A stretch of DNA of 64,000 nt. Origin: an uncultured bacterium. Lineage in GTDB: Bacteria; Methylomirabilota; Methylomirabilia; Methylomirabilales; CSP1-5. The translations under genes were made by a program, and so were the position numbers. The notes beneath the pieces are model-generated. The model searched no databases and was not told the DNA's origin. It worked only from the letters and a program-made list of their open reading frames with translations. The first letter of the stretch is position 1; the number at the start of each line of letters is the position of its first letter. The stretch covers positions 19,541 through 83,540 of the forward strand of contig CAYGBT010000009.1 in assembly GCA_964348275.1 (NCBI GenBank), written 5' to 3'. Positions 19,765 to 61,017 of this stretch are shown here, piece by piece.

Positions 19765-19817
19765 CCTTCAGCGCTTACGAATCCTCGTTCACGGTCCAGG
19801 ATTCAGGGTTCATAGAT

Positions 19818-19866
19818 TCTGAACGACGTACTCTGAACTATGAACTTTGATCTCTGAACTGTCAAC
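19818..19866. repeat. tandem heptamer array (7 x 7 nt: TCTGAAC GACGTAC TCTGAAC TATGAAC TTTGATC TCTGAAC TGTCAAC)
   Basis: Exact 7-nt phase over 49 nt in the ftsK-rnj spacer. The last unit contains the rnj stop codon. Confidence 0.8.
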
Positions 19867-34396: not shown

Positions 34397-36627
34397 ACCA
34401 CCTCTGCCACCACCGGCAGAGCGGGAAATTCCATGATCATCCGGGTCCCTCTGGGGTGATTGTCCTCCACCTGGATGGTCCCATGATGTTCGGTGATGAT
34501 CCGGTACACGATGGCGAGGCCCAGGCCAGTCCCGGACTTCTTGGTGGAAAAGTACGGCAGAAAGAGGCGCTCCCGATCCTCCGGGAGAATGCCCGGACCC
34601 GTGTCGGCCACCTCCAGATGGACTTTCCCATCTTCTGGGAGATACCGAGTTATCAGGCAGATCTCGCCTTCCTCCCCCACCGCGGTCATCGCATTATCCA
34701 CCAGATTGACCAACGCCCGCTTCATGTGATCGGGGTCCAGGTTCACAGGAGGCACCTCAGGATCGAGCACGGCGGTCAGCCGGATGCGCTTGGAGACCCC
34801 GGAGTAGAGATTGAGGACCTTCTCGATCAACGCGTGCAGATCCCCCGGTCGCGGATAGGATGTCGGCATCCGAGCATACCGGGAGAATTCATCTACCAAG
34901 CCCTTCAGGGCTTCCACTTCTTGAATGATGGTCTGCGTGCATTTGTCAAAGACCGCCGAGAAGTCGGTGGACCCTTCGGTGAACTTCCTCCGGAGGCGCT
35001 GCGTGGAAAGCTTGATGGGGGTCAAGGGGTTTTTGATTTCATGGGCGATCCTCCGGGCCATCTCCCCCCACGCCATGGCCTGTTGGGCCCGGATGAGCTG
35101 AGTGACGTCATCGAAAACCACCACCATGCCGAGATCGTGCCCTTCCCGATCCCTCAGGCTCGAGACGTTGACCACAAGGGTTACGCCCCGACCAAGCAGC
35201 GAAAGGGTCACCTGCTCATTCACCGTACCTCGTCCCTCCCGGGCCATCCGATCCATCAGATGGCAGAGGGGGGTCAAGGGTTCAGAGGCGAAGACCCCTC
35301 GGTAGTGTCGCTGGAGGGCATCTGTGGGGTCGAGATCCAGTAACCGGGATGCAGCGCGGTTGACCCTATTCACCCACCCCTCGGCGTCTACAGAAAGGAC
35401 TCCGGCCCCGATGCTATCCAGGACTGTCTCCATGTACGCCCGCCGCTGGTTCAGCTCGATATTGGTTCGTTGCAGATCCCGGTTCGTCTCTGTGAGCTCT
35501 ACCTCGCTCCGACTCAGGTCTTGGGTCATCCGGTTAAAGGAGTCCACCAACATCCCGACCTCATCATCCGCCTCCACCTGGACTCGATAGTCGAGGTTCC
35601 CAGCTGCCACGGCACGAGTCCCCTCGGCAAGCTCTTGGATGGGGACGGTAATCCGGCGAGCCATGTGCACGCCGACCCACACAGCACCGAAGATGATCAC
35701 CAACGTGACCATCAGGAAGAGCATGATGTAGATCCCCTTGACCGGGTTCTTCAGCATCTTTAGCTGCTTGTATTCCTTGATCCCCGTAGTGATGTCGGCA
35801 GCCTTCTGTGCCATCCCGCCGGGGATGAGATATCCCACCGCGGCTGCCCCAAGAACCTGGCGTTTCTTCGACGAGAGAACGATCGGCACGATACCACGAA
35901 CAAGATCCCCCGATGGGGTCTCGTGGATGAGAAACTGCTCCTTCCCGTTCAAGGCACGGCGGACGGACCGAGAGGCAGCTGTCAGCGCTTCATTTTCAGT
36001 GAGTTGCTCCCCCCAGATCCGCAGGCGCTCTCGTCCGCGGCGGTCAAAGATCTGAAGAACGGCCAGTTGGAATTCCTGGAGCTTTTCCTCGGCGACTCGA
36101 TTGAGGTACGGCTCGCTGGCGTCGAGAAGCCCCTCGGCTGCAACCCGCCGAGCGATCTGCTTGGCTGAAGTGAGCGCCCGGTCATGGGACTCCTGATAAT
36201 AGGTCTGCGCCACTTCCAAAGAGCGATCGAGAGACTCTTCCACCTTGACGTTAAACCACGTGTCCACACTGGTGGTGATGAGGTTCGACGCCACCAGGAA
36301 GAGTAGTGCAGCAGGGAGCAACGCGAGACTCAAGAAACTCACCACCAGCTTCACCCGGAACTTGGACCCCAAGAGGTTGTTCCGACGCTCCAGATAGATC
36401 TTAAACATATTCCGAAAGAGCAAAAGGACGAGAAGGACGAGGAGACTGAGGTTCACGTTCACGAGGGCAAAGATCAAGATATTGCTCGGAATCGGGGAGG
36501 GAAACCGGAGTTGGTGGAGCAGCACTTGGACTGTGGTCAGGACTGCGACCAGGCCCACCACGACGGCAATGATCAATCGCGTCCGCCGCCGCCGCTGTTC
36601 CGTGGTGCTGCCTCCGGTGTGTGCCAT
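34393..36627 (-). CDS. ntrY: NtrY-like sensor histidine kinase (TM-HAMP-PAS-HisKA-HATPase)
   Basis: 744 aa; H-box HEIKNPLTPI; the N, G1 and G2 boxes are present. Confidence 0.85.
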   Translation of the reverse strand: MAHTGGSTTEQRRRRTRLIIAVVVGLVAVLTTVQVLLHQLRFPSPIPSNILIFALVNVNLSLLVLLVLLLFRNMFKIYLERRNNLLGSKFRVKLVVSFLSLALLPAALLFLVASNLITTSVDTWFNVKVEESLDRSLEVAQTYYQESHDRALTSAKQIARRVAAEGLLDASEPYLNRVAEEKLQEFQLAVLQIFDRRGRERLRIWGEQLTENEALTAASRSVRRALNGKEQFLIHETPSGDLVRGIVPIVLSSKKRQVLGAAAVGYLIPGGMAQKAADITTGIKEYKQLKMLKNPVKGIYIMLFLMVTLVIIFGAVWVGVHMARRITVPIQELAEGTRAVAAGNLDYRVQVEADDEVGMLVDSFNRMTQDLSRSEVELTETNRDLQRTNIELNQRRAYMETVLDSIGAGVLSVDAEGWVNRVNRAASRLLDLDPTDALQRHYRGVFASEPLTPLCHLMDRMAREGRGTVNEQVTLSLLGRGVTLVVNVSSLRDREGHDLGMVVVFDDVTQLIRAQQAMAWGEMARRIAHEIKNPLTPIKLSTQRLRRKFTEGSTDFSAVFDKCTQTIIQEVEALKGLVDEFSRYARMPTSYPRPGDLHALIEKVLNLYSGVSKRIRLTAVLDPEVPPVNLDPDHMKRALVNLVDNAMTAVGEEGEICLITRYLPEDGKVHLEVADTGPGILPEDRERLFLPYFSTKKSGTGLGLAIVYRIITEHHGTIQVEDNHPRGTRMIMEFPALPVVAEVV

Positions 36628-36639
36628 CCGCGTCTATCC

Positions 36640-36864
36640 TTAGTCGTCCTGACGGTTCCAATACGATGAGCTGAGGGGTCTACGGGCTACCACAGTACCC
36701 CGGACACCGAAGACTAACTCCTCGTCCCCCAAATCAAAAGGTACCAGGATTACAGGGATTGGATGCGACGAGAGCCAGTTTCGGCTACGGTCGAGAGACT
36801 TTTTGCTGCAAAGGACCCGTTTCACCCCTTCACAGAGATTTTCGATACTTGGACCCGACTGCAT
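36640..36864 (-). CDS. hypothetical 74-aa protein (uncertain whether coding)
   Basis: The only ORF in the 280-nt lpxC-ntrY gap, ending 12 nt before the ntrY start. No recognisable domain. Confidence 0.25.
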   Translation of the reverse strand: MQSGPSIENLCEGVKRVLCSKKSLDRSRNWLSSHPIPVILVPFDLGDEELVFGVRGTVVARRPLSSSYWNRQDD

Positions 36865-36907
36865 GAATATAGCTAAAACCGGAATGGTCTGACAAGGAGA
36901 AACGGCT

Positions 36908-37828
36908 TTACAGGGCAGGGGAGCCGAGGGGTTTTGGGGAGGCAGGAACGGGGAACGGAAGAGATTCAGGGGCCGTCACGACACATCGGGAGACCAGGTC
37001 TGATTGCAGGTGGCGCTGAATCTCTTTCACCAGGCTGGTATGAAGAAGATGACCCGCCCCTTTTGCCACCACCGTCCCCTGCAGCGGCCGCCCCAAAAGG
37101 TACAGGTCGCCAATGAGATCCAATACCTTGTGCCGAATCAACTCGTCCCCGAAGCGAAGGTCATTGAGGGCACCCTCCTCGCCAATGACCACGGTATTTT
37201 CCAGGGAGCCGCCAAGGGCCAGGCCCCGCCGCCACAGGTACTCGACATCCCGGAGAAAGCCGTAGGTCCGGGAGGGGGCGATTTTCCTGATGAAGCTGCG
37301 TCGGGAGACCAGTAGTTGGATGGATTGATCAGGAAAGGAAGGATGATCATACTGCATAAAGTATTGGATCCGAAAGCGTTTGGAGGGGAGAATCTGGATA
37401 CTCCTATCCCCCATCTCAATGGTAAGAGGCTTGGTCACCCGGATGTACGTCTTCGGGACGTAATGCCTCCGGATCCCTGCTTGAAGGAGGAGGTCCACAA
37501 AAGGGGCTGCACTCCCATCCATGACGGGAACCTCGGGCCCCGAAATATCCACCTTGAGATTGTCGATCCCGAGGCCTGCGAGAGCGGCCAGGAGGTGTTC
37601 GACGGTTTTTATCTCGACCCCTGCCTTCCCGAGCGTCGTGGCGTAGTGAACATCAAGGATGTTTTCAGGACTGGCCTCGACGACAGGCGTTTCGGGCAGG
37701 TCCACCCTCCGGAAGACGATCCCGGTGTTTGGGGGCGAGGGACGGAGGGTCATGCTCACTTCACGCCCGGTATGGAGTCCCACACCCGAACAGTCGGTCA
37801 CCTTCGCGATCGTCTTCTGCCGACCCAC
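36908..37828 (-). CDS. lpxC: UDP-3-O-acyl-N-acetylglucosamine deacetylase
   Basis: GVGLHTGREV, TVEHLLAAL and HKVLDLIGDL motifs. Confidence 0.95.
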   Translation of the reverse strand: MGRQKTIAKVTDCSGVGLHTGREVSMTLRPSPPNTGIVFRRVDLPETPVVEASPENILDVHYATTLGKAGVEIKTVEHLLAALAGLGIDNLKVDISGPEVPVMDGSAAPFVDLLLQAGIRRHYVPKTYIRVTKPLTIEMGDRSIQILPSKRFRIQYFMQYDHPSFPDQSIQLLVSRRSFIRKIAPSRTYGFLRDVEYLWRRGLALGGSLENTVVIGEEGALNDLRFGDELIRHKVLDLIGDLYLLGRPLQGTVVAKGAGHLLHTSLVKEIQRHLQSDLVSRCVVTAPESLPFPVPASPKPLGSPAL

Positions 37829-37960
37829 GTCCCCTCCAATGCTCGGGTCAGAATCATAGACGGCTGATCACGCCGTGCGCCATGACTACCGAATTCGTGC
37901 AAGGCCCATACCAAAGGCACAAAGGAGATCTCACGAGAAAAATATCTTTAAATTCAAATG

Positions 37961-38027
37961 GATAGGACATGGCAGTTCAGAACAGCCTTTGCCATTGTGA
38001 CATTTTTGCAACATTGCCATCCCTATC
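37961..38027. promoter_or_regulatory. 13-14-nt inverted repeat (GATAGGACATGGCA ... TGCCATCCCTATC) with an internal TTGCCAT direct repeat, in the lpxC upstream region
   Basis: Arms at 37961-37974 and 38015-38027 in an AT-rich spacer. TTGCCAT occurs at 37989-37995 and 38014-38020. Confidence 0.3.
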
Positions 38028-38053
38028 TGTTGGAAAAAAACCACAGGGGACCG

Positions 38054-38515
38054 TCAATCCGTTTCCCAGGCTTTCTTGAGAATCCGAGCCAGGACCTCCC
38101 GGCACTCCTCGTCCTGGACGGGTCGGAGAATCTCCTGGATACGCCCCTGCATCTCAGAAGAGGAAGGGTGGCTTCTCCTTCGAGAGATTTGTTCAGGCCG
38201 AGCGGTAGGCATGGAGGGTGTACCGAGGATGAAGAAGATATCCCGGACCACTCCGGCACCCACGTGAGACTCCAGGCCCGTAAGGATCCTGGGCTTCAAC
38301 ATGGTCAGCTGCTGGAGCCAAACTGCATCGCCCACTGTCACGTGGAGACGGCCGTTCTTCAAGAGACCCGGTTGGCTTCGACGAGCCACCTCCTCACCGA
38401 CAACCTCTGACCAGACCCGGTGAATGACAACGTTCACGAAGCCAACACCCAGTCCAAGCAGGTCCAAGGTCGTCTCTACGGCCTTCGCAAGAGGGGTGAA
38501 GCCCGAATGAGTCAC
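38054..38515 (-). CDS. dciA: DUF721/DciA-family protein (putative replicative-helicase loader)
   Basis: WSEVVGEEVARRSQPGLLKNGRLHVTVGDAVWLQQLTMLKPRIL matches the DUF721 pattern. Confidence 0.7.
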   Translation of the reverse strand: MTHSGFTPLAKAVETTLDLLGLGVGFVNVVIHRVWSEVVGEEVARRSQPGLLKNGRLHVTVGDAVWLQQLTMLKPRILTGLESHVGAGVVRDIFFILGTPSMPTARPEQISRRRSHPSSSEMQGRIQEILRPVQDEECREVLARILKKAWETD

Positions 38516-39138
38516 CTTGCCTTCTCGCCCCGATGTGTGGCGGACCCCTGCCGCCGTCCACCCAGGACGGCCTCGATCGCCTTGTTGGCTAAGAGATCGG
38601 CTCTCGCATTCATCCCCCGACCGACATGAGCAATTTCGAATGCGTCGAAAGAGCGTACGAGGTCTTGCACCTGATCATACAACACGCGCAAGCGAGGATT
38701 CTTCACTCGATATTGTCCGCGGATTTGCCGCACGAGGAGCTCTGAGTCGGAAAAGACCTTCACGGCCGCATAGCCCAACTCCTTGGCTTTCCGGGCCCCG
38801 AAGAGGAGGGCCTCATATTCAGCCACGTTGTTTGTTGCTTCTCCGATGTAGGCGTGATGCTCCTCCCGAAAAGCCCCTGCTTCATCCCACAGGACCACCC
38901 CGATCCCCGCCGGGCCCGGATTGCCTCGAGCAGCTCCATCGATGTGAAGGATCAGCGATCGCGCCGCCGGTTTACCAGACCGACGGGAAGTGGCAAGCCG
39001 TCGAAGCAGGTGAGAGGCTTCCTCCAGCGCCATCCTCAGCGTGGCCGGGGGGAGATCGGCAAGCTCGCCTCTCAGGGCGGTGAGGGCCCGGGTGCGGGCC
39101 ATTGCCTCAAGGATATCCGCAAGCCGTTGCGGATTCAT
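38512..39138 (-). CDS. rnhA: ribonuclease HI-family protein with an N-terminal extension of about 60 aa
   Basis: DGAARGNPGPAGIG...ATNNVAEYEALL...SDSELLVRQI...NARADLLAN catalytic pattern. Confidence 0.85.
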   Translation of the reverse strand: MNPQRLADILEAMARTRALTALRGELADLPPATLRMALEEASHLLRRLATSRRSGKPAARSLILHIDGAARGNPGPAGIGVVLWDEAGAFREEHHAYIGEATNNVAEYEALLFGARKAKELGYAAVKVFSDSELLVRQIRGQYRVKNPRLRVLYDQVQDLVRSFDAFEIAHVGRGMNARADLLANKAIEAVLGGRRQGSATHRGEKAR

Positions 39139-39139
39139 A

Positions 39140-39844
39140 TCACCCTTTCCAATAGAGGATCCGCTGGCAGTTTGCGCAGGCGATCAGGACTTCTCCCTTG
39201 CGGAGCTCATTATAGGTCTGAGGCGTGAGAGCAACGTAACACCCAAGGCAGGAGCCGTCCTTGACGGGAGCTACCGCCACGCCGCCTCGGGTGCGCACAA
39301 GGCGGTCGTACATTTGAAGAAGTCCCGGCTCCACGCGATTTGCGTGACGGCGACGGTCCTCCTGAAACCGACCCAGCTCTCCCTGGAGACGACCGAGCTC
39401 CGCTTCCTTCGCAGTCCGCTGCTGCTCAAATGTCTTCTCCCGTTCCTGAAAGAGGGCCTCTTCATTTCGAACCGTCCCTTGCGCCACCTCAATCTGATCA
39501 AAGAGTTCGAGGATCTCGTCCTCAAGCTTCGACCGGCGCTCCTTGAGCCCTTCGATCTCTTTCAGCACCGCTGCATATTCCTGATTCGTTTTGATTTCGA
39601 AGAGACGTCCCTGCCGCTTCCGTTGCTCGGCCGTGACCTCCTCTAACTCTCGCTCCTTCCGCCGACGGAGCTGGTCGCAATTGCTGAGACGTTCGCGAGC
39701 CTCGTCCCATTCCCGCCGAGAGCTGTTCAACTGTTGCTCCCAGTCCGCGATTTCTCGTGGGATTTTTTGGACCTCACGCTGGAGCCTGGAGATCTCCAGG
39801 TCAAGATTTTGCAAATCGACTACTTGGGCCAGGTCCTCCCGCAC
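39140..39844 (-). CDS. C4 zinc-ribbon/coiled-coil protein (COG1579, DUF164-like)
   Basis: Long coiled coil and a C-terminal CLGC...CANC ribbon. The track start 39889 lies inside a heptamer repeat; a GTG at 39844 preceded by GAGGG is more plausible. Confidence 0.75.
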   Translation of the reverse strand: MREDLAQVVDLQNLDLEISRLQREVQKIPREIADWEQQLNSSRREWDEARERLSNCDQLRRRKERELEEVTAEQRKRQGRLFEIKTNQEYAAVLKEIEGLKERRSKLEDEILELFDQIEVAQGTVRNEEALFQEREKTFEQQRTAKEAELGRLQGELGRFQEDRRRHANRVEPGLLQMYDRLVRTRGGVAVAPVKDGSCLGCYVALTPQTYNELRKGEVLIACANCQRILYWKG

Positions 39845-39853
39845 ATCTACCCT

Positions 39854-39955
39854 CAGTTCACGGTTCACTGAGTTTAGTTCACGGCTCACAGTTCACCGTT
39901 CACAGACTTCTTCTCTCCGCGCTGCAGTGAACCGTCCGCCGTGAACTGTGAACTG
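39854..39955. repeat. heptamer-repeat hairpin (6 x NGTTCAC, loop, 3-4 x GTGAACN) downstream of tRNA-Met
   Basis: CAGTTCAC GGTTCAC ...GTTCAC GGCTCAC AGTTCAC CGTTCAC ... GTGAACC GTCCGCC GTGAACT GTGAACT. Confidence 0.8.
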
Positions 39956-39962
39956 ATTTGCG

Positions 39963-40038
39963 TGGTGGGCCCACCTGGATTCGAACCAGGGACCGTCCGG
40001 TTATGAGCCGGTGGCTCTGACCGCTGAGCTATGGGCCC
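39963..40038 (-). tRNA. tRNA with CAT anticodon (elongator Met, or Ile2 if lysidine-modified)
   Basis: 76 nt cloverleaf: acceptor GGGCCCA/TGGGCCC, D-arm GCTC-AGCGGTCA-GAGC, anticodon loop CTCATAA, T-arm CCTGG-TTCGAAT-CCAGG, encoded CCA. Lacks the initiator GGG/CCC anticodon stem. Confidence 0.9.
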
Positions 40039-40043
40039 ATGCA

Positions 40044-40132
40044 GAGTTCACGGTTCACAGTTGACAGAAAGAAGACAGCCACTCCGTTGCTCTAGACTGT
40101 GGATCGTGAACTGTGAACCGTCAATTGTGAAC
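40044..40132. repeat. heptamer-repeat hairpin (3 x GTTCACN/GTTGACA, loop, 5 x NGTGAAC) upstream of tRNA-Met
   Basis: GAGTTCAC GGTTCAC AGTTGAC ... TGTGGAT CGTGAAC TGTGAAC CGTCAAT TGTGAAC. Confidence 0.8.
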
Positions 40133-40148
40133 GAGCCCCGCGGGGGCT

Positions 40149-41948
40149 TTACGAATCCACGAAACTCCGGAGCTTCCGGCCGCGGGTGGGATGTCGAAGC
40201 TTGCGCAATGCCTTCGCCTCAATCTGCCGGATTCGCTCCCGGGTCACATCGAATTGCTGCCCCACCTCTTCCAGGGTATGATCCACGCCGTCGCCGATCC
40301 CGAAACGGAGGCGCAGCACCTTGCGCTCCCGCTCAGTTAAGGTGCTCAGGACGTCATCGGTCTGGGTCCCCAGATTAATCCCAATGAACGACTCAAGTGG
40401 GGAAACTGCCCCCTTGTCCTCGATGAAGTCCCCGAGGTGCGAATCCTCCTCCTCTCCGATCGGGGTCTCCAGAGAGATTGGCTCCTGAGCGATCTTCAAG
40501 ACCTTCCGTACCTTGTCCACCGGGAGATCGATCTTCTGGGCAATCTCCTCCGGACTGGGTTCCCGACCAAATTCCTGTACCAACTGTCGGGAGGCACGGA
40601 TCAACTTATTGATGGTCTCGATCATATGGACTGGGATCCGAATGGTCCTGGCCTGATCCGCGATCGCCCGGGTGATGGCCTGGCGGATCCACCACGTGGC
40701 ATAGGTGGAGAATTTATAGCCCCGCTGGTACTCAAACTTCTCCACGGCCCGCATGAGCCCAATATTCCCCTCTTGAATGAGATCGAGAAACTGGAGCCCC
40801 CGGTTCGTGTACTTTTTCGCAATAGAGATCACCAGGCGGAGGTTGGCCTCCACCATCTCTCGCTTGGCATTCAAGGCCTTTCGTTCACCCCGGCTAATGG
40901 CGTGGAGTAGCTCGTGCACCTCACTGGAGCTGGTGCCGGCCTCTTGTTCCGCCCGCTCGATCTTCTTGGTGATTACCTCAATTTGCCGTCCGAGGTCCTC
41001 GAGCTTATCGCGGGAGAATTTGGTCCGCCGGACCAGGGTCCGCATAGAGACACCGTTGCCCAAGGCAGTATCGCGAAGTACCTTGAAGTTGGCTGCGCTC
41101 AAGCGCGTGGAGCGTTTGAGCTCTTTCATCTCCCGATCGGACTTCTCAACCCGCTCGAGGAAGCTCCGCATGCGGGCCACAATCCGTTCGATGACCCGCT
41201 GATTGAGGTTGAGCTTCCGCAGGAGCTCGGCCTGATGACCCTTCCTTTCCTGAACCTCTTGCCCGAGGCGCTCCGCCCGCTTGGCATTGCCTCGCTGCAC
41301 GGCCCGCTCGAGCCACTTGCTGAGGTTCTCGACCTTTTCCTGATTTTGCCGCAGGCCCTTCAGGGCCGGTGCAATCTCGGAAAGCAGCTCCTTCTCTTTC
41401 TGTTCCGAGATCTCGTCAAAATCGGGGAGGGCAATGAGATCCGCAACCCGCAGCCGGCCCTGGAGCAGACGCTCTCCTAAAAAGATCACCTCACGGACGG
41501 CAACCCCAGCTCGGCAGACCGCCTCGGTGACCTCGCGGCGCCCCTCTTCGATCCGCTTGGCAATCCCGATCTCCCCCTCGCGGGAGAGGAGGGGCGTCTT
41601 TCCCATCTCGCGGAGATACATCCGGACCGGGTCATCGGTCCGACCCACCGGCGCAGGGGATAGGTCCACCTCCGCCTCGGCTCCCCCTGACTGAGGCTGC
41701 GCCGCTTTCTTCGGCCCCGGTCGCCCCGCCTCGGGGGGAGTATCGATCACCTCAATGTCCATCTCATCCAAGACGCCAAGGATCCGATCAATCTTTTCGG
41801 CGGAGGTGATATCTTCCGGAAGACACGTGTTGATTTCCTCGTACGTCAGATATCCCTTTTTCTTGCCCAGGGCGATGAGGACCTTCAGCTCCTCCATTCT
41901 CCCCTCGTCTGCCATGCCGTTGTTTCCTCCCTGCCTATTAATTCTCAA
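40149..41948 (-). CDS. rpoD: RNA polymerase primary sigma factor RpoD
   Basis: Regions 1.1 to 4.2 are present ([44 protein letters not shown]). Confidence 0.96.
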
Positions 41949-43702
41949 GAATTCCTTGCACTCTCTTTAATATAGTCCGTTTCGGGAAATCGGCCACCCG
42001 TGAGTCTCTGTTTCTGGTCCAGAAGCGCTTTCACCCGAAGAAGATCTCCTTGTTCCCGCGCTTCCCTGAGCTGGTCCTGGATCTCCTGGAGCTTAAGCCG
42101 AACTAGACAGTCCTGCACCATGCGATGCGGATCGACAAATTCATCCCCCCCCTGGACGAGGAGCTCGGCCGCCACCTGGCGGACCACAGGATCAGGATGG
42201 TGCGTGAGTGTCCGCGCGAGACTTTCCTCCTCGCCCTGGTATTCTCGAAGGAAACCATAGATGGACCGGAGGGAGGAAGCCGAAAGCTCGTCGCCCCGGA
42301 GAGATCCCCACACGCGACGGCGAATGTCCGGAAAAAGGAGGCAGATCTGGATCAAGGTCTTCTCCACGGGCGGCAGCTCCAAACACGGCGCGGGGCCCAA
42401 AGTCGGGGCTGGGTCCGGGGACCCCAGACGGCGGAGCTCCACCACGACCGCTCCCTCGGATACCCCCAACCGCTCTGCGAGCTTCTGAACATACTTGGCT
42501 CTCCGCACCCCCTCTGGCATCTGAGTAATAAGGCGCAAAACCTGCCGGGCCGCGGCCGCCTTTTCATCGATGCCCTGCAGTCCCGTCTGCTCCTCTGCCC
42601 GGATGAGGAGAAAATCAACGAGATCCTGAGCCCCCTCCACCCGTGCCAGAAGGGCATCTCTGCCGTTCTTCCGGACGAAGGTATCAGGATCTTCCCCCTT
42701 CGGCAGGACCACCACCGCCACCCCCATATCCTCAGCCACCAAGAGCTCTAACCCTCGCCAGGCGGCTTGAATCCCGGCGGGGTCGGGATCAAAGAGGAGG
42801 ACCGCCTTTTCAGCATATCGGTGCAGAAGGATCACCTGGTCACGCGTTAAGGCGGTTCCCAAGGTGGCCACCGTCTGGGGAAACCCTGCGCTGTACAGAG
42901 AGATCGCATCGAAGTATCCCTCCACCACCAGTGCCACTCTCGCTTCGCGGATTGCCCGCGATGCCAGATGGAGACCGTACAGATGGACCCCCTTCTTATA
43001 GATGGGGGTCTCCGGCGAGTTGATATACTTGGGCTGTTGATCTCCCAGAGCTCGACCCCCGAATCCCACGATCTTTCCTGTAGAATCGGAAATGGGAATC
43101 ATCAGGCGCTCCCGAAACCGGTCGTAGTATCCCCGCCCATCCTGCCTCGGAAGGGCCAGGCCCGCCGCCTCCACCTGGCGTGGGTCGTATCCCCGCTTGG
43201 TGAGCTCACGGATCAGGCCCTCCCACTCCGCGACAGCGTACCCCAGATGCAACCGGTCAGCTAGCTCCGGCCCCACCCCTCGCCTGTTCAGATATTCCCT
43301 CGCTTGGTTTCCCGCTGGACTATTCAGGGCCTTCTTGAAGTAGTCACAGGCGAGCCGCTGAAGCTCGAAGAGCTTCAGGATACCGTCCCCCTGACGGCTC
43401 CGCCCCCTCTCCGGGAGCGGAATCCCTGCCCGCTGGGCGAGATGCCGGACTGCCTCGGGGAAGGTAAATCCTTCCCGCCGCATGAGGAACCGGAAAACAT
43501 CCCCTCCCTCACCGCACCCGAAACAATAAAAGATCTGGCGATCTGGGTTGACCGTGAAGGAAGGGGTCTTTTCGCTGTGGAAGGGGCAGAGGGCCCGGTA
43601 GTATTTTCCAGTTTGCTTCAAAGGAAGGTAGCCCTCGATCACCTCCACAATGCTCGAGTTCCTCAGAATCTGGTCAATGACTTCCTCTGGGATAAATCCC
43701 AT
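41945..43702 (-). CDS. dnaG: DNA primase
   Basis: Zinc finger [13 protein letters not shown]...CFGCGEGGD and TOPRIM domain (VVEGYFD). Confidence 0.95.
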
Positions 43703-43761
43703 GAAGCACCTCGACAGCTCCTACTAAAAAAGTAGGGCCCTTTTCTCTGCGTCAGACGAGG

Positions 43762-46293
43762 TCACTCGCCATCCGGTTCCCGCAACGCCACGACGGTGGC
43801 GCCGCTCCCCCCTTCGCTGATGTCGGCGAGGTGAAACCCCACCACCAGTGGATGCTCTTTCAAAAACTTATGCAGCCCCTTCCGGAGCATCCCCGTCCCC
43901 TTGCCATGGATCACCCGGACTTGTCCTAGGCCCTCCATGAAGGCTGCATCCAGGTACTTCTCCAGTCGTCGCGATGCCTCTTCTACGGTACAACCGACCA
44001 CATTGATTTCCGGGGAGATGGACTGAGCCCTCTCCACGAAGAGCGGCCTCTGGCCCCCCGGCCGTCCGGGAGAGGCTGCCGGGCTGAGCATCGAGACAGG
44101 CACGTGGACCCTGCCCACGTTGAGCTCTACCTCTACGGTCCCCTGAGCAGAGACCGGCGTCAGAACCCGCCCTTGCCTCTCCAGCCCCGCGACGGTCACC
44201 CATTGTCCTGGTCCGACCCCGACGGCGATCGGGGAGCTGTCGGCTGCAGGGACTCCGAGTGCCTCGACGTTCACCTTCAGCTCCTCGAACCGCCGGTGAA
44301 AAGCCCGGACCTCCTCCGGCCGTCTCCCCTGTTCTCGAAGCGCGCGAATGAGTCCCTCCCCTTGCTGCCGGAGTTCCGTCAGAAAGCGCCTTGCTTCTTC
44401 CTGTGCTCGTTGTTTGAGGTCCTTGACGGCTGCGCGAAGCCGCGCTACGAGTTCCTCGGCTTCCTTCCGGAGCGTCGAGGCCCACTGGACCTCCTCGTGA
44501 AGCTGAGACCTGAGACCCTCCACCCGTTGGCGGCTAGCCTCAAGGGCCTCCAGGAGGTCCTCGGTCCTTTGGTGCCCCATGGGGACGGTCTCTCGTGCTT
44601 TTTCTAAGATCCGCCGTGGCAGACCGAGGCGTCCGGCGATTTCGAGCCCGTAACTTTTACCCGGAAGCCCCAGCCGGATGCGGTACTGCGGAGTCAGACT
44701 TTCCAAATCGAATTCGACACTCGCATTTTCCACACCGACGGTCAGTGCGGCAAACGCCTTGACCGCCTCGAGATGCGTGGTGGCAATCACCGACGTCCCT
44801 CGCTCCCGGAGCGACTCAAGAATGGCGATACCCAGGGCCGCTCCCTCCGAGGGATCGGTCCCGGCCCCGAGCTCATCGAGGAGGACCAGGGTCTCCGGTC
44901 CCGCATGGGCCAGGATCTTAACGACCTGACCCATGTGAGAAGAAAAAGTGCTCAGACTCTGCTCAATGCTCTGCTCATCCCCGATGTCGGCAAAGACATC
45001 CCGATAGTAGGGGACCTGGCTGTCTGGAGAAGCCGGGACCGGGAGGCCGGACAGGGTCATGAGGGTGAGAAGACCCGCGGTCTTTAGGGCCACCGTCTTT
45101 CCACCCGTATTCGGTCCGGTGATGACGAGTGCAGTGAACGCTCCGCCGACTTCAAGATCAATGGGCACCGCTGCCGGCCGAGGTCCGCCCCGGGCCTCCC
45201 CAGTGTCTTCTTCCATACTCAGTCCCCGCGGGGCGGGATCCAGCACGAGGAAGGGATGGCGAGCCCCCCGTAGAATGAGGCGGCGGTCCTGAGTCACCCC
45301 GGGAATCTCAGCCCGAAGGCGAACCGCCAAGCGTCCCCTAGCCATTAGATGGTCCAGATCGCCCAGAAGTTCCAGGAGTGCCTGGATGGTATCCGCTTCT
45401 CGCCTGACCTCAGTCGTAAGGGCCCGGAGGACTCTAGCGACCTCTTCCTCTTCTTGACGCGACAAGATCCGGAGCCGGTTGTTCATCTCGACGACCGGGC
45501 TCGGCTCCAGGAAAATGGTGAGCCCGCTCCCCGACTGATCCTGAATCACCCCCCGGATCTTGCCCTTCGCTGAGGATTTCACCGGGATCACGTATCGGTC
45601 ATTGCGAAGGGTAATGATCGGCTCGGCCAGGGCCGTTTGGTAGCTCGGGGAGGTCAGATACCGTTCGAGCTTCTCGACGATGACCGCCCGGAGGTCGCGA
45701 AGCTCGTGCCGAACCCTTCGAAGCTCTGGGCTGGCCGCATCGGCCACCTCCGCCTCTGACGTAATGGCCTCCCCGATCACCGTGCAGAGGCGGTCCGGGA
45801 CGAGGAGGCCGCTCGCCCGCTTCCACAGGAGGAGCACCCCAGCCTTCTCTCGCTGGAAAAACGTGCGGAGCCGACGGGCTGCCGCTAACGTCTCGGAAAT
45901 CTGCCAGAGGGAGCGCGGATCGAGCGACGATCCCTCAATCCTCGCCCGGTTCAACTGGGGACGGATATCGATCACCCCGCCGAAGGGAGGCTCCTCACCC
46001 CGTTCGAGGAGTCCTTTTGCCTCTCCTGCCTCGGCCAGGGCTTCTTGTACACGCTGCAGACTCTCTAGGGGGACGACTTCACACGCTCTCTCCCTGCCGA
46101 ACGGAGTGACCGCCGCCGCCTCGAGAAAATCGAGGATGCCGGCAAACTCTAACCCCGTGCGGGTCCGGTCATCCATTCCCTGGACCGCTCCAGGAAACGA
46201 TCGAGGGACCCCGCGAGGGGTCCCTCGATCGTTCCTTTCTTTCCCGTGCCCCATGGTGGTGGAGAAGCCTCCCACTCGGGCTGAATACGTCAT
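43762..46293 (-). CDS. mutS2: endonuclease MutS2 (MutS ATPase plus C-terminal Smr domain); start ambiguous (46293 or 46176)
   Basis: Walker A GPNTGGKT and Smr RVIHGKGTGMLR. The 46293 start forms an ATGA overlap with yqeY, but a perfect 16-bp hairpin sits within the first 40 codons. Confidence 0.9.
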   Translation of the reverse strand: MTYSARVGGFSTTMGHGKERNDRGTPRGVPRSFPGAVQGMDDRTRTGLEFAGILDFLEAAAVTPFGRERACEVVPLESLQRVQEALAEAGEAKGLLERGEEPPFGGVIDIRPQLNRARIEGSSLDPRSLWQISETLAAARRLRTFFQREKAGVLLLWKRASGLLVPDRLCTVIGEAITSEAEVADAASPELRRVRHELRDLRAVIVEKLERYLTSPSYQTALAEPIITLRNDRYVIPVKSSAKGKIRGVIQDQSGSGLTIFLEPSPVVEMNNRLRILSRQEEEEVARVLRALTTEVRREADTIQALLELLGDLDHLMARGRLAVRLRAEIPGVTQDRRLILRGARHPFLVLDPAPRGLSMEEDTGEARGGPRPAAVPIDLEVGGAFTALVITGPNTGGKTVALKTAGLLTLMTLSGLPVPASPDSQVPYYRDVFADIGDEQSIEQSLSTFSSHMGQVVKILAHAGPETLVLLDELGAGTDPSEGAALGIAILESLRERGTSVIATTHLEAVKAFAALTVGVENASVEFDLESLTPQYRIRLGLPGKSYGLEIAGRLGLPRRILEKARETVPMGHQRTEDLLEALEASRQRVEGLRSQLHEEVQWASTLRKEAEELVARLRAAVKDLKQRAQEEARRFLTELRQQGEGLIRALREQGRRPEEVRAFHRRFEELKVNVEALGVPAADSSPIAVGVGPGQWVTVAGLERQGRVLTPVSAQGTVEVELNVGRVHVPVSMLSPAASPGRPGGQRPLFVERAQSISPEINVVGCTVEEASRRLEKYLDAAFMEGLGQVRVIHGKGTGMLRKGLHKFLKEHPLVVGFHLADISEGGSGATVVALREPDGE
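46197..46232. other. perfect 16-bp hairpin with a GCGA loop (ACGATCGAGGGACCCC-GCGA-GGGGTCCCTCGATCGT)
   Basis: Lies between the two candidate mutS2 starts, 21 nt upstream of the ATG at 46176. Confidence 0.6.
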
Positions 46294-46742
46294 CCTCCCC
46301 CCGAAAGCTCCTGCCTCACGAGGCGGCTGACCTCGCTTCCGTCAGCCCGCCCGGCCACTTGAGGCATCAGAGAAGCCATAACCTTTCCCATGTCCTTAAC
46401 CGAGCTAGCCCCCGTAGCGGCAATGGTCTCCCTCACCTTGGCCAGGAGTTCCTCGGGGGTCATCGCCTTGGGGAGGAAGCACAAGAGCACTTCAAGCTCC
46501 GCCGTTTCTTTGCGGACGAGATCCTCCCGCCCTCCTTCACGGAATTGCCCGATGGCTTCTCGCCGCTGCTGACATTCTTTGACGATGAGCTGAAGGATTT
46601 CGGGCTCGGTTAAGTGTCCCCGCTTTTCCACCTCGCGATTCTTGACGGCGGACAGCAGTAGACGGAGGGTCGAAGCCTCCACCTTCCGGCCGGCCTTCAA
46701 GGCCTCCCGAAGATCTTGGTGGAGGCGCGTTGTGAAATCCAT
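46290..46742 (-). CDS. yqeY: GatB/YqeY-domain protein
   Basis: 150 aa: LTEPEILQLIVKECQQRREAI...GKVMASLMPQVAGRADG pattern. Confidence 0.88.
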   Translation of the reverse strand: MDFTTRLHQDLREALKAGRKVEASTLRLLLSAVKNREVEKRGHLTEPEILQLIVKECQQRREAIGQFREGGREDLVRKETAELEVLLCFLPKAMTPEELLAKVRETIAATGASSVKDMGKVMASLMPQVAGRADGSEVSRLVRQELSGGG

Positions 46743-46743
46743 C

Positions 46744-46941
46744 CTACTCCTGAACCATTCGCATCTTCTTCAGCATCTTCTTCCGGGCCGCGAGAGCTTT
46801 CTTTTTCCGGCGGACACTGGGTTTTTCATAATGCTGTCGCTTCCGCATCTCGGAGAGCACCCCAGACTTCTCCACTTGCTTCTTAAAGCGTCTCAGCGCA
46901 CTCTCAAAGCTCTCGTCCTCCCGGACGAGTATGGTAGTCAC
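46744..46941 (-). CDS. rpsU: 30S ribosomal protein S21
   Basis: [33 protein letters not shown]; GTG start. Confidence 0.93.
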
Positions 46942-47050
46942 CCCTCACACCCCCTTACCAACCTATTGATTTTTACGATAGATCCTATAGATATACCAAT
47001 TGCATATCGGAAGGATTGCCCTGTTACATTAAATCATCCTGGCCATTCTG

Positions 47051-47791
47051 TCAATGCCTTTTCCGTGCCTTTTTTCCCCTTTTTTTGTATTCCGTCTTCT
47101 TTTTCCCTACGCGCCCCTCAAACTCTCTCCACAGTTGATTCAAGGAGATACCACGTGCCCCGAGAAGGACCAGGGTGTGAAACCACAGATCGACCACTTC
47201 ATAGATGATGTCCTGCCGCCGCCCCCGCTTGACGCTCAACAGGATTTCAGACGCCTCTTCAGTGATCTTCCTCAGGATCTGATCCTCCCCCTTCTGGAAG
47301 AGCGAGCTCACGTAGGATCCTGGGGGGCGCTTCTTCTTCCGCTCTAGAATGGTCCGATACACTGCATCGAGAACCTGGGAGGAATGCCCATAGACCGCCT
47401 CAGGGTGAAAGACCTGCTGGGTGACCGGGGCGGAGGAGGTGAGGTTCTTTCGGACGCGCCGGAAGAAACACGACCGATAGCCGAGATGGCAGGCAGCCAC
47501 CTGCTGCTCTACCTGGAGGAGAAGGGCGTCGCCGTCACAGTCGAGGCGGATTTCTCCGACCCGCTGCACATGCCCTGACTCTTCCCCCTTCTTCCAAAGC
47601 CGACGCCGAGACCGGCTGTAGTAGTGCGCAAAGCCAGTTTTCAGGGTCTTCCGGAGCGCCTCCCGGTTCATATAGGCCACCATCAAGACGTGGCCCGTCC
47701 GGGCATCCTGGGCGATGGCCGGAATGAGACCCTTACTGTCAAATTTAACCTTGGCGGGGACTTTCGCCACATTCACCCCCCTCTGCTTCAC
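47051..47791 (-). CDS. hisI: bifunctional phosphoribosyl-AMP cyclohydrolase / phosphoribosyl-ATP pyrophosphatase HisIE
   Basis: HisI core (GLIPAIAQD...CDGDALLL) plus HisE tail (EEASEILL...EVVDLWFH). The GTG start at 47791 lies inside a heptamer block; in-frame GTGs at 47776/47770 are alternatives. Confidence 0.9.
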
Positions 47792-47812
47792 AGTTCACGG
47801 CTCACGCTTGAG
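47786..47812. repeat. heptamer block (CTTCACA GTTCACG GCTCACG)
   Basis: Same GTTCACN family as at the tRNA. Overlaps the annotated hisIE start. Confidence 0.6.
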
Positions 47813-47883
47813 GGTCCGATGTCAGAGGTCGCGAAGAGCGAGGAGGGGGTTCCTTCCGAGGCAGGCGACATCTGGCTTGCGTC

Positions 47884-47909
47884 TTCGAAGGAGTCCGGAG
47901 TCCTTCGGA
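47884..47909. repeat. 26-nt imperfect palindrome built from GGAGTCC units
   Basis: TTCGAAGGAGTCCGGAGTCCTTCGGA, centred on TCCGGA, in the hisF-hisIE spacer. Confidence 0.55.
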
Positions 47910-48057
47910 CAGGCCGGGGTCCCGCCGCCGAAGCGCAGCGCAGGCGGGGGTGGCCCGCACTAGCGAATGACATCGCCTGATCGTGCGTAACGATGCCTCT
48001 GCGCATCAAGTCCTCGGAGAATTATGGCGCCGCCGAGGAAGGTCCCGCTGAGCTCTT

Positions 48058-48099
48058 GGCTGTCGGTTGTCGGTCATCGAGTAACGGTCGTCGGTCACC
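48058..48099. repeat. tandem heptamer array (6 x 7 nt: GGCTGTC GGTTGTC GGTCATC GAGTAAC GGTCGTC GGTCACC)
   Basis: Exact 7-nt phase, located immediately after the hisF stop. Confidence 0.75.
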
Positions 48100-48105
48100 G
48101 GGGCC

Positions 48106-48975
48106 TTAAAGGCGTACCGGGATGCCCCGTTCTTTCAGGTACGCCTTGGCTTCGCCAACGGAGATCTCGCGGAAGTGAAAGATGGAGGCAGCGAGTGCCG
48201 CATCCGCCTTGCCATGAGCAAAGGCCTCGAACAGATGCGCCATTGTCCCGGCTCCCCCGGAAGCGATCACCGGCACCCCCAGGCGCTCGGCGACCGACCG
48301 AGTCAGTTCCAAATCATACCCGTCCCGTGTTCCATCGCGGTCCATGCTGGTCAGTAGAATTTCCCCCGATCCCAACGCCACCCCTTGCTCCGCCCAACTC
48401 ACCGCATCGAGACCGGTCGGCGTCCGACCACCGTGAATATACACCTCCCACGACAGTCCGAGGTCCGACGTCGGAGGTCCGACGTCGGAGGACCGAGGTC
48501 CGAGCTCTGAGATCCGAGGATCGGTATCTAACGGTTTCATACTCGACTTCGCACTTCGGACTTCGGACTTCGCACATCTCTTGGCATCGATGGCAAGGAC
48601 AATGCACTGGCTTCCGAACCGTTCTGCCGCCTCTCGAATCAGCTGCGGGTTTTGCACCGCTGCCGTGTTGAGGGAAACCTTATCGGCCCCCGCCAGGAGA
48701 AGAGCACGGATATCCTCTGCGTCCCGGACACCGCCTCCCACGGTGAGCGGGGTGAAGGCCCGCTCTGCGGTTTTTTCGACCACGCCAATCAGGATCTTCC
48801 TGCGCTCAGCCGATGCGGTGATGTCGAGGAACACCAGCTCATCTGCCCCTTCCTGATCGTATCGCTCCGCAACTTCAGCCGGATCTCCCGCGTCTCGAAG
48901 ATCCACGAACCGGGTCCCTTTGACCACACGGCCATCCTTGACATCCAAGCAGGGGATGATCCGCCTCGCTAACAT
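48106..48975 (-). CDS. hisF: imidazole glycerol phosphate synthase cyclase subunit HisF, carrying a 42-aa repeat-encoded insertion
   Basis: Canonical HisF ends ([16 protein letters not shown]...; ...[23 protein letters not shown]). 289 aa versus about 250 expected; the extra segment [12 protein letters not shown]...SDLGLS maps to 48451-48576. Confidence 0.9.
48455..48580. repeat. 18 consecutive heptamers (126 nt) inside hisF: 10 x NGTCCGA-type, 3 degenerate, 5 x ACTTCGN (reverse-complement type)
   Basis: AGTCCGA GGTCCGA CGTCGGA GGTCCGA CGTCGGA GGACCGA GGTCCGA GCTCTGA GATCCGA GGATCGG TATCTAA CGGTTTC ATACTCG ACTTCGC ACTTCGG ACTTCGG ACTTCGC ACATCTC. Confidence 0.85.
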
Positions 48976-49703: not shown

Positions 49704-49718
49704 TCGAACGGCTCCTCC

Positions 49719-49900
49719 GCTGTCAGCAATCAGTTTAAGGCTAGCTATCAGCCGTCAGCAATCAGCAAATATTAGCTACCAGCAGTCAACAATCGGCTCC
49801 CAGCTATTAGACTCCTTTGAGTCGAGAGATCAAATCCTTTAAGCTTCTCATGGCTGACAGCTGCCAACTTACTGACCCCTGACAGCTGACTGCGACAGCT
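49719..49900. repeat. heptamer-repeat hairpin filling the hisA-hisH spacer (about 13 x GCNNTCA-type units, loop, about 7 x TGACAGC-type units)
   Basis: Left arm GCTGTCA GCAATCA ... GTCAGCA ATCAGCA ... GCTACCA GCAGTCA ... GCTCCCA GCTATTA. Right arm GCTGACA GCTGCCA ... GACAGCT GACTGCG ACAGCT. GCTGTCAGC (49719) is complementary to GCTGACAGC (49853). Confidence 0.75.
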
Positions 49901-50545: not shown

Positions 50546-50549
50546 GTTA

Positions 50550-50648
50550 GTTTACCGTTCTCGGTTCACAGTTCACAGGAAAGACTCGAAGGCGCCATGA
50601 TCGCGGCTGGATACCGTGAACCGTGAACTGTCAACTGTGAACAAGCGG
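50550..50648. repeat. heptamer-repeat hairpin in the hisH-hisB spacer (4 x GTTCACA-type, loop, 5 x CCGTGAA-type)
   Basis: GTTTACC GTTCTCG GTTCACA GTTCACA ... CCGTGAA CCGTGAA CTGTCAA CTGTGAA CAAGCGG. Confidence 0.8.
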
Positions 50649-50650
50649 TG

Positions 50651-51238: not shown

Positions 51239-51269
51239 GCGTCTTTCCTTGGCCCTCAAGGCCCTCCCT

Positions 51270-55475: not shown

Positions 55476-56579
55476 TCATGATGCTGATGAGGCCTTGAGT
55501 CGCTCCGCCTCGTAATGGGCCATGAGGGCCTGCGTCAACTCTTGGAGGTTGCCACTGAGCACTTCTGGAAGATTATAGAGGGTTAACCCGATGCGATGAT
55601 CGGTCACCCGGCCCTGGGAAAAGTTGTACGTCCGGATCCGCTCGCTTCGATCCCCCGTCCCTACCTGCTGCCGCCTGGCGTCGGCGATCTCCCGCTCCTG
55701 CTCGGCCCGGGCTTGCTCCAAAAGACGCGCCCGGAGGACCTTGAGGGCCTTGGCCTTGTTTTTGTGCTGTGACCGTTCGTCCTGACAAGACACCACCAGG
55801 CCTGTCGGGAGGTGGGTGATACGCACCGCCGAGTCAGTCACATTCACATGCTGCCCCCCGGCACCGCTCGCCCGGAAGACGTCGATCTGGAGATCCTTCG
55901 GGTCGATCTGAACATCCACCTCCTCCGCCTCGGCCAGGACCGCTACCGTCACCGTCGAGGTGTGAATTCGACCGCTGGCCTCGGTCACCGGCACCCGCTG
56001 GACACGATGGACGCCACTCTCGTGTCGGAGCTTTCCGAAGGCCCCCTTCCCCTCAATCGCCAAAATGACCTCTTTCATCCCCCCGATTCCCGTGGGATGG
56101 GCCGAGAGCATCTCCACTTTATAGCTGGCAGACTCCGCATACCGGGAATACATCCGAAGAAGATCGGCGGCGAACAACGCCGCCTCATTGCCGCCGGCCC
56201 CGGCTCTGATCTCTATAATCACGCCCTTCTCGTCCGCCGGGTCCTTGGGAATAAGCATCCCGTGCAGCTCATGCTCCAGGACGTCTCGCCGACCCCTCAG
56301 CGCTTTGAGTTCGGCCTCGGCTAACGCCCCCATCTCCGGATCGGTCGTCTCCGCAAGGAGGGCCGTCGCCTCCTCCTGTTCATGAATCAGTCGCTGGTAA
56401 ACCCGATATTTTTCCACGATGGGATGGAGATCGGCGTGGGCCTTGGCGTGGCGCTGATAGGTGTTGGGATCCTGCAAAACGGCGGGATCGGCAAGCTTCT
56501 GGCTCAAGTCCTCGTACCGCTCCTCGATTTCCCGCAACTTGTCGAGCCAGGTCAACATTCGAGCTCGTTCACACTTCAC
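55476..56579 (-). CDS. prfA: peptide chain release factor 1
   Basis: PVTE tripeptide-anticodon motif (in [15 protein letters not shown], where RF1 normally has PxT) and GGQ (SGAGGQHVN). The GTG at 56579 lies in a heptamer block; the ATG at 56558 ([15 protein letters not shown]) is an alternative start. Confidence 0.94.
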
Positions 56580-56638
56580 CGGTCACCGACAGGTCCTTCA
56601 CCCCCACTCGGTAATCCGTGAATTATGAACCCGAATCC
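56566..56638. repeat. degenerate heptamer hairpin in the rpmE-prfA spacer (CGTTCACA CTTCACC GGTCACC ... CTTCACC / CCGTGAA TTATGAA CCCGAAT)
   Basis: Same xTTCACx / xGTGAAx family. Overlaps the prfA start and the rpmE stop. Confidence 0.6.
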
Positions 56639-56838
56639 GCCTTGCGGCGATATCTTCGCTGAAATCGCTCCACCCGCCCCTCGCTATCCACGAGCTTCTG
56701 ACGTCCAGTAAAGAAGGGATGGCACTTGGAGCAAATTTCCACCCGGATCTTCGGCACGACCGAACGGGTATGCATCACCTCGCCGCACGCGCAGGTAATG
56801 GCACAATCGACGTACTCAGGATGGATGCCTTTTTTCAT
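56623..56838 (-). CDS. rpmE: 50S ribosomal protein L31 (zinc-binding type)
   Basis: [19 protein letters not shown]...[10 protein letters not shown]. The track ORF extends upstream to 56958. Confidence 0.93.
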
Positions 56839-60985: not shown

Positions 60986-60989
60986 AAGT

Positions 60990-61017
60990 GTCCGAAGTCC
61001 GATGTCCGAAGTCGAAG
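60990..61017. repeat. 4 tandem heptamers (GTCCGAA GTCCGAT GTCCGAA GTCGAAG) immediately upstream of the rsmE start
   Basis: Same GTCCGAN unit that forms the hisF insertion. Confidence 0.75.

Follow-up and report, generated by a model that had tools for sequence, protein, structure and literature searches.

The DNA analysed here (the window) is a stretch of 64,000 nucleotides from an uncultured bacterium of the Methylomirabilota (NC10), and the single transfer RNA (tRNA) gene of the window lies on its minus strand at 39963-40038 and has the anticodon CAT (ARAGORN; Rfam tRNA, 66.8 bits). On each side of this gene lies an imperfect hairpin-forming inverted repeat of ~100 nt whose arms are short tandem arrays of the heptamer NGTTCAC, and these two copies belong to a population of heptamer-array inverted repeats found throughout the genome. 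We consider it probable that these elements are microsatellite-like, self-perpetuating inverted heptamer arrays which arise at the DNA level and are akin to the cyanobacterial repeats known as STRR.

Two heptamer-array hairpins flank the tRNA gene

39963..40038, minus strand: tRNA(CAT), called tRNA-Met by ARAGORN
39853..39956, minus strand: 3'-flank heptamer hairpin (in the sense direction, GTTCAC arm 39955-39927, loop 39926-39904, GTGAAC arm 39903-39854)
40042..40138, minus strand: 5'-flank heptamer hairpin, between the rpoD stop codon and the 5' end of the tRNA (plus-strand arms 40045-40067 and 40106-40132)

On the plus strand, (N)GTTCAC arrays at 39856-39903 and 40045-40067 are followed by complementary GTGAAC(N) arrays at 39927-39955 and 40106-40132, and an inverted-repeat finder returned 33-nt arms that are 76-79% complementary for both elements. 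The gaps to the tRNA are 5 nt on the 5' side (40039-40043) and 7 nt on the 3' side (39956-39962). These arrays, gaps and arms bear out the claim of a first-pass annotation that the tRNA is bracketed by hairpins of GTTCAC heptamers. The 3' hairpin terminates exactly at the Shine-Dalgarno sequence of the downstream COG1579-type gene; the 5' hairpin has a perfect core of 13 bp and two alternative pairing registers.

Comparison of the folds with shuffled sequences, which the annotation had proposed as a check, supported a stable RNA structure in full on one flank only. On the minus (sense) strand the stretch 39850-39960 folded at -52 kcal/mol (z -6.1, none of 200 shuffles as good), and on the plus strand it folded at -38.3 kcal/mol (z -3.6). 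The corresponding values for 40040-40140 were -30.5 kcal/mol in sense (z -1.2, with 22 of 200 shuffles as good) and -34.4 kcal/mol on the plus strand (z -3.3), so the expected structure stood out there on the plus strand and not in sense. Folding with DNA parameters agreed with this picture (z -4.5 for the 3'-flank element). As folds, then, the 3'-flank element is far above chance and the 5'-flank element only modestly so.

Heptamer arrays recur across the window

Allowing at most one mismatch, the window contains 16 matches to GTTCACNGTTCAC where 0.18 would be expected, a count that none of 100 shuffles reached. Arrays of period 7 number 18, compared with ~3 in shuffles, and rows of period 7 were also returned by Tandem Repeats Finder; periods 5, 8, 10 and 11 show no excess over shuffles, and the signal at periods 6, 9 and 12 comes from coding sequence. 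Heptamer-array elements number at least 10 and are built from several unit types; five or six sites belong to the GTTCA family, and the unit families seen are GTTCAC/G/T, GTCAGC, GTCCGA, GATGAC and GAGACC. The sites at which the annotation had reported the same family indeed carry it, with GTTCACNGTTCAC matches at 47786, 50557-50642 and 56567, although the 47786 copy is one arm alone, with no hairpin partner.

50549..50642, minus strand: GTTCAC-family hairpin that fills the hisB-hisH spacer (50545-50650 folds as a hairpin)
56560..56632, minus strand: GTTCAC/GTGAAT-family hairpin between co-directional genes (56555-56640 folds as a hairpin; sense -33.4 kcal/mol, z -3.7)
19783..19866, minus strand: GTTCAG/CTGAAC-variant hairpin, filling the whole gap 19765-19861 (z -3.8 and -4.7)
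49743..49900, minus strand: GTCAGCN/GCTGACN hairpin that fills the hisH-hisA spacer (sense -62.5 kcal/mol, z -5.3; antisense -39.6 kcal/mol)
48455..48580, minus strand: GTCCGAG/CGGACTT hairpin within the hisF reading frame, translated as a loop insertion of 42 residues
50178..50209, minus strand: (GATGACC)4 array of direct repeats within the hisH reading frame, translated as SSAIGHRSS
60988..61017, no strand assigned: short GTCCGAA array between genes, lacking a clear inverted partner
47786..47807, minus strand: orphan arm of GTGAAC units, immediately upstream of the Shine-Dalgarno sequence of hisIE

All elements of the window are intergenic except those in hisF and hisH, and most spacers of co-directional gene clusters are occupied, including hisB-hisH, hisH-hisA and hisF-hisIE in the his operon. 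The peptide SSAIGHRSS in hisH (49901-50545, minus strand) sits just before the conserved PHMGWN motif, and no inverted partner of its array was seen. Because the same architecture fills the spacers of the his operon and lies inside hisF and hisH, the elements are not specific to the tRNA, and the earlier suggestion of devices dedicated to this tRNA or to operon boundaries is not supported.

The arrangement is shared by relatives, and the core by many phyla

The loci and genomes compared with the window are coded by L-numbers. The Methylomirabilota locus L062 is syntenic with 39770-47746 of the window at 79% nucleotide identity, carries an identical tRNA and has both hairpins at the same positions; the arms are conserved, the loops cannot be aligned, copy numbers differ and arm lengths are very unequal (~10 units vs 4). 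A scan of metagenomes with the COG1579 protein as query gave 70 loci among which the tRNA(CAT)-COG1579 arrangement is widely conserved. All 14 distinct NC10-type lineages (46-81% protein identity) have heptamer hairpins on both flanks of the tRNA, 5-7 nt away at the 5' side and 3-8 nt away at the 3' side. Their units vary (GTTCAGG/CATGAAC, GTTCAC, AGTTCAT, GTCAGCN and GGTCTAT), and the two sides are sometimes unlike. A stalk enclosing the tRNA, of the kind known from ribosomal RNA, was considered in this connection: the 5'-side GTGAAC arm could pair with the 3'-side GTTCAC arm, yet units differ between the sides in L122, L141 and L119, so the stalk is not conserved. In more distant clades the tRNA-COG1579 locus is without heptamer hairpins, and several of them instead place the tRNA between a consensus promoter and a canonical terminator of GC stem plus T-run.

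A scan for the exact GTTCAC hairpin pattern, with one genome per species, found at least 111 loci in more than 10 phyla with GC contents of 0.33-0.73, a count that is a lower bound and carries no frequency comparison with other heptamers. The recurrence reported by the first-pass annotation thus extends beyond the window. The matches come from Methylomirabilota (~30 loci among the matches listed), Nitrospirota, Planctomycetota, Acidobacteriota, Verrucomicrobiota, Desulfobacterota, Bacteroidota, candidate-phyla-radiation lineages, Gammaproteobacteria, a Microcoleus and a Petroclostridium. No motif is common to the loops of 115 copies, and in NC10 both loops and flanks are unrelated. Searches of Rfam 15 gave nothing but tRNA in the window region (E up to 10) and only tRNAs in 17 hairpin-carrying loci, which argues against a known RNA family; in the searchable literature the exact repeat strings gave unrelated primer or eukaryotic matches only.

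Units are gained and lost while sites stay occupied

The gain or loss of units is seen directly in the pair L134 and L139, which are identical over the aligned tRNA and 3'-flank stretch save for one 7-nt unit, with a few base differences upstream. In L137, which aligns with L134, L135 and L139, a rearrangement replaces the rpoD side with its breakpoint inside the left heptamer arm; this position within the arm suggests that arrays may act as recombination sites.

The coding copy gives a longer record. In hisF (48106-48975, minus strand) the 42-residue insertion encoded by the hairpin follows the conserved AIDAKR motif, and HisF proteins of NC10, which range from 251 to 300 residues, have one hypervariable insertion site holding 0 to ~50 residues. 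The inserted peptides are translations of different heptamers (GFRGQGSGFR from GGTTCAG units, LEPGTRNSEL from CTGGAAC units), and comparison across four relatives shows a graded series of insertion DNA of 126, 126, 84, 63 and 30 nt, with arms that decay unit by unit. Moreover, the outer arms of the hisH-hisA element are the same in L185 (72 nt), L184 and the window (197 nt), while its interior differs in size and content and includes a second unit type in L184; with outer arms constant and interior variable, change is concentrated at the apex. Taken together, these alignments show long-term occupancy of sites with turnover of their units.

Inversion is the rule for these arrays. Where arrays of the same unit are adjacent, they are inverted rather than direct in a ratio of 102:2 for the GTTCA family over all loci, and of 11:1 for units outside the search selection. 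The seventh base of the unit is complementary from arm to arm at a rate of 0.565, against 0.458 when permuted (3 of 2000 permutations as high), which is a weak signal.

The hairpins are not canonical terminators and are modestly associated with tRNA genes

The annotation had proposed that the elements might terminate transcription and be enriched at operon boundaries. Rho-independent terminators resemble them as stem-loops placed just 3' of a gene or tRNA, and a few low-GC copies are even followed by T-runs; here, however, the stems are long and imperfect and the loops measure 20-45 nt. Neither flank element has a U-tract, and no such terminator site lies nearby on the sense strand. Between 36 and 52 kb, canonical terminators number 19 against 13.5 +/- 3.8 in shuffles and are not enriched, and at the element sites none follows a gene on the sense strand. 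Of the 224 sides of the 112 hairpins listed from other genomes, 21 are followed by a T-run, and in tandem gene contexts 3 of these are sense and 8 antisense. The intergenic contexts of the listed hairpins (53 tandem, 11 convergent, 11 divergent) match the background of 322:73:81, on crude gene calls, so that there is no depletion between divergent genes. With U-tracts this scarce and showing no preference for the sense strand, the terminator proposal fails the canonical test. The boundary proposal fares no better, since the proportions of contexts equal the background and elements sit inside the his operon.

The proposed link to tRNA genes survives in part. Six of the 112 listed matches have a tRNA no more than 35 nt away, in most cases with the match ~20 nt beyond the tRNA 3' end; given how much intergenic space and how many tRNAs these loci contain, ~1.8 such matches would be expected (Poisson P ~0.01). 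This excess and the occupation of both flanks in NC10 give modest support to some tRNA link, against which stand the elements in operons and coding sequences. In the spacers on the flanks of the tRNA the sense strand folds better than the antisense strand in 24 of 32 cases (mean difference -2.6 kcal/mol, P = 0.035), with the G-richness of the sense strand as a confounder, and three hisF hairpins behave in the opposite way and fold better on the antisense strand.

Origin and function

In the account that we prefer, arrays would lengthen and shorten through replication slippage in steps of 7 nt, and the similarity of the arms would be maintained by intra-strand template switching (quasi-palindrome correction, an established process) and/or by weak selection for pairing. 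Slippage and arm matching together would keep a seeded site occupied for long. The identity of the repeat class and its origin at the DNA level, taken jointly, we hold with considerable confidence. That the hairpins at the tRNA locus also have a selected role at the RNA level is possible, and we lean against it. Polymerase slippage as the origin of heptamer repeats is an idea that PMC4692102 cites.

What such an RNA-level role might be follows from the layout of the locus. No consensus promoter match was found before the tRNA or inside the 5' hairpin, and because there is no promoter-like site there, rpoD, the tRNA and the COG1579 gene are probably carried on one transcript. In a joint transcript, long stems would flank the tRNA at distances of 5 nt (5' side) and 7 nt (3' side), with the 3' stem abutting the COG1579 Shine-Dalgarno sequence. 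They could then serve as structural punctuation, either as barriers to 3' exonucleases or as entry points for double-strand nucleases that help to release the tRNA. A role in tRNA release or in protection of transcript ends would be plausible.

Several observations weigh against slippage and arm matching as the whole explanation. A small set of units appears again and again at many independent loci whose loops are unrelated, and exact GTTCAC hairpins span the phyla and GC contents given above; simple slippage explains neither. The occupation of both flanks and the 3-4-fold excess near tRNAs among the matches listed could reflect function and not inertia, and the sense-fold excess hints at selection on RNA, within the limits set by G-richness and by hisF. 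The recurrence of a few units, GTTCAC above all, being unexplained, readings in terms of dedicated signals, mobile elements or protein binding stay in play.

That the hairpins are dedicated tRNA signals, selected as terminators, as RNase III or RNase E processing sites or as insulators of the tRNA from the rpoD and COG1579 messages, seems to us unlikely. Such signals would account for the filling of both flanks in all NC10 relatives examined despite turnover of units, for the tight spacing to the tRNA and for the excess of listed matches near tRNAs. They would also suit L037, an NC10 tRNA cluster with a heptamer hairpin in each spacer, two copies of Desulfobacterota type that lie 10-12 nt 3' of tRNA-Ser and tRNA-Thr, and the canonical terminator that takes the same spot in more distant lineages. 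Yet the identical architecture occurs within operons and inside coding sequence, U-tracts are absent here and scarce and without sense bias elsewhere, divergent regions are not depleted, the sense fold of the 5'-flank element is no better than shuffles, and arms can be as unequal as in L062.

A wider form of the functional argument holds that GTTCAC-type hairpins are a distinct cross-phylum functional class, produced or maintained by a dedicated sequence-specific system and serving as RNA or DNA punctuation beside tRNAs and between the genes of operons. We regard this as doubtful; if it were true, there would be, for example, a repeat-binding protein or an enzyme that adds templated 7-nt units, and the recurrence of the core would be the signature of that system and not of neutral slippage.

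Improbable, in our estimate, is that these are miniature mobile elements similar to REPINs or to miniature inverted-repeat transposable elements (MITEs), with the heptamer arms as terminal inverted repeats for a transposase encoded elsewhere. Mobility would explain the spread within genomes and across phyla, the same arm units at many loci and the insertion inside hisF. One Sedimentisphaerales (Planctomycetota) genome has at least 10 GTTCAC hairpins, several with similar loops, and copies of Desulfobacterota type share an outer inverted repeat, GTAACTACTCAGG...CCTGAGTAGTTAC, with a loop also common to L059 and L083. The REP/BIME/REPIN elements (PMC3116915) are likewise hairpins of ~100 nt with two inverted conserved arms and a variable middle, located in intra-operon spacers and 3' regions and thought to affect mRNA stability. 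However, REP arms are short palindromes with a GTAG/CGTC head that are mobilised by RAYT transposases, whereas the arms here consist of heptamers and gain or lose one unit at a time, and the NGTTCAC arms have neither a GTAG nor a CGTC head. The unrelated loops and flanks of NC10 copies also exclude a single MITE family there, orthologous sites change gradually and are not simply present or absent, and no target-site duplication was noticed in the flanks read, although no systematic search for them was made. In IMG/VR the hairpin pattern had 0 matches, and two composition-matched control heptamers had 1 and 0 and so provide no frequency control; a phage or mobile-virus origin was set aside on this result.

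The Desulfobacterota-type element with the GTAACTACTCAGG outer repeat was also seen at 7752-7880 and ~5150 of L083, a contig labelled Methanophagales ANME-1. Its loop is nearly identical to that of the Syntrophaceae copy L059, and this near-identity suggests either a mis-binned contig of a bacterial partner or transfer.

It is very improbable that the arrays are double-stranded DNA sites for a sequence-specific nucleoid-associated protein or regulator, with the inversion serving symmetric binding and the hairpin incidental: the 6-nt core kept across phyla beside a weakly pairing seventh base, the unconstrained loops and the lack of orientation bias relative to genes would fit, but orthologous sites have unlike cores (GTTCAC, GTCAGC, GGTCTAT), several unit families coexist in one genome, elements are tolerated in coding sequence and no candidate protein is known.

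Comparison with known heptanucleotide repeats

Repeats of seven-nucleotide units have counted as an oddity since 1990, and neither their origin nor their function is agreed upon. The elements described here belong with them in having head-to-tail units beyond chance, several families that are mostly intergenic, and unit numbers that vary among relatives. Such repeats are over-represented and intergenic in some bacteria (PMC4692102, PMC4679880). The STRR-type repeats and long-unit simple sequence repeats that PMC4692102 cites, from Calothrix PCC 7601 and from a 2007 survey, are similar to ours in their tandem 7-nt units, mostly intergenic position, several families per genome and strain variation in length, as well as in having no known function and slippage as the proposed origin. 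STRR are described as direct arrays, whereas the arrays here form inverted pairs that fold into hairpins of ~100 nt, have other units, occur in another phylum and are also found in frame within enzymes.

Two further systems can be compared. The TAACTGA repeats of Beggiatoaceae, cyanobacteria and Bacteroidetes (PMC4679880) are also one intergenic heptamer that distant phyla have in common, with no transfer mechanism in evidence, and they too are often near start codons; however, they occur as 169 direct sets vs 1 inverted and point at the downstream start, and GTTCAC arrays are inverted and unbiased. The heptamers GGGAATC of Xanthomonas and GGGGA(C/T)T of Nostoc (PMC4692102) are intergenic, occupy the same gaps between genes in related species with variable length and include some inverted, stem-loop-capable copies, but they are G-rich and have been studied as quadruplex formers, and inverted pairs, usual in our elements, are exceptional among them. 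An architecture in which inverted pairs are the norm, the occurrence of a single core in so many phyla and the array in frame within hisF appear to be undescribed.

Repeat units as a source of false start codons

39140..39844, minus strand: COG1579-type zinc-ribbon protein, with corrected start GTG 39844 (the start called at GTG 39889 is inside the repeat)

The open reading frame called at 39140-39889 opens with VSRELNSVNRELRVD, which is read from the GTGAAC arm of the 3'-flank hairpin, and homology to relatives starts at the next in-frame GTG, 39844. The codon matching 39844 is GTG or ATG in all nine close relatives examined, and in each of them a Shine-Dalgarno sequence GGAG or GAGG stands 5-8 nt before it. 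In the eight closest relatives, moreover, the frame upstream of the start is closed after 9-10 codons by a TGA within a TGAAC unit. The suspicion of the first-pass annotation that this gene is mis-started was therefore right.

The GTG called as start of hisIE at 47791, which derives from the orphan arm, is probably spurious as well, and the gene ending at 55476, with a GTG start called inside an array at 56579, is probably over-extended, to judge from the position of both codons within repeats. In both cases (47770-47791 and 56557-56579) the reading frame offers a better-placed start, with a Shine-Dalgarno sequence of GGAG type, a few codons after the called GTG.

The tRNA and its gene neighbourhood

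40149..41948, minus strand: rpoD (sigma-70), with sigma-70 regions in its translation; last protein gene of the rpsU-yqeY-mutS2-dnaG-rpoD cluster
40134..40148, minus strand: small GC-rich stem-loop AGCCCC/GGGGCU directly 3' of the rpoD stop codon

The acceptor stem of tRNA(CAT) reads G1-G2-G3-C4-C5-C6, and C4:G69 and C5:G68 are the TilS determinants of tRNA-Ile2. From C4 and C5 the gene may be a candidate tRNA-Ile2 instead of an elongator tRNA-Met; ileX of Escherichia coli also lies near rpoD. Every gene near the tRNA is on the minus strand, with rpoD upstream and the COG1579-type gene downstream. Over 36000-52000 the order on this strand is hisB-hisH-hisA-hisF-hisIE-rpsU-yqeY-mutS2-dnaG-rpoD-tRNA-COG1579, and the order from hisB to COG1579 is an extended version of the classical rpsU-dnaG-rpoD cluster; his genes adjoin rpsU, yqeY and mutS2 in the relative L184 too.

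The small stem after rpoD is found at the same site in L062, L124, L134, L141, L143, L147 and L153, and in relatives it takes mutually compensating versions (GCCCC/GGGGC, GGGCCG/CGGCCC and GTGCGCG/CGCGCGC). At the yqeY/mutS2 junction (46196-46233) there is a perfect 17-bp palindrome with a 4-nt loop, and at that junction in L184 a related stem, GAGGGAC...GTCCCTC, precedes TTTTT; from these two structures, conventional hairpins exist in the genome too.

Significance

A first consequence is practical. GTGAAC units yield false GTG starts that over-extend open reading frame calls, here for the COG1579 gene, for hisIE and for one or more further genes, and heptamer repeats probably also break metagenome assemblies. 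Beyond the descriptions that we found, NC10 and many other environmental phyla carry heptamer arrays as inverted pairs that form long hairpins; a GTTCAC core is found across phyla, sites stay occupied while their units turn over, and one element lives in frame within the essential enzyme gene hisF. These elements offer a concrete system in which to ask how a 7-nt periodicity originates and whether the hairpins organise transcripts.

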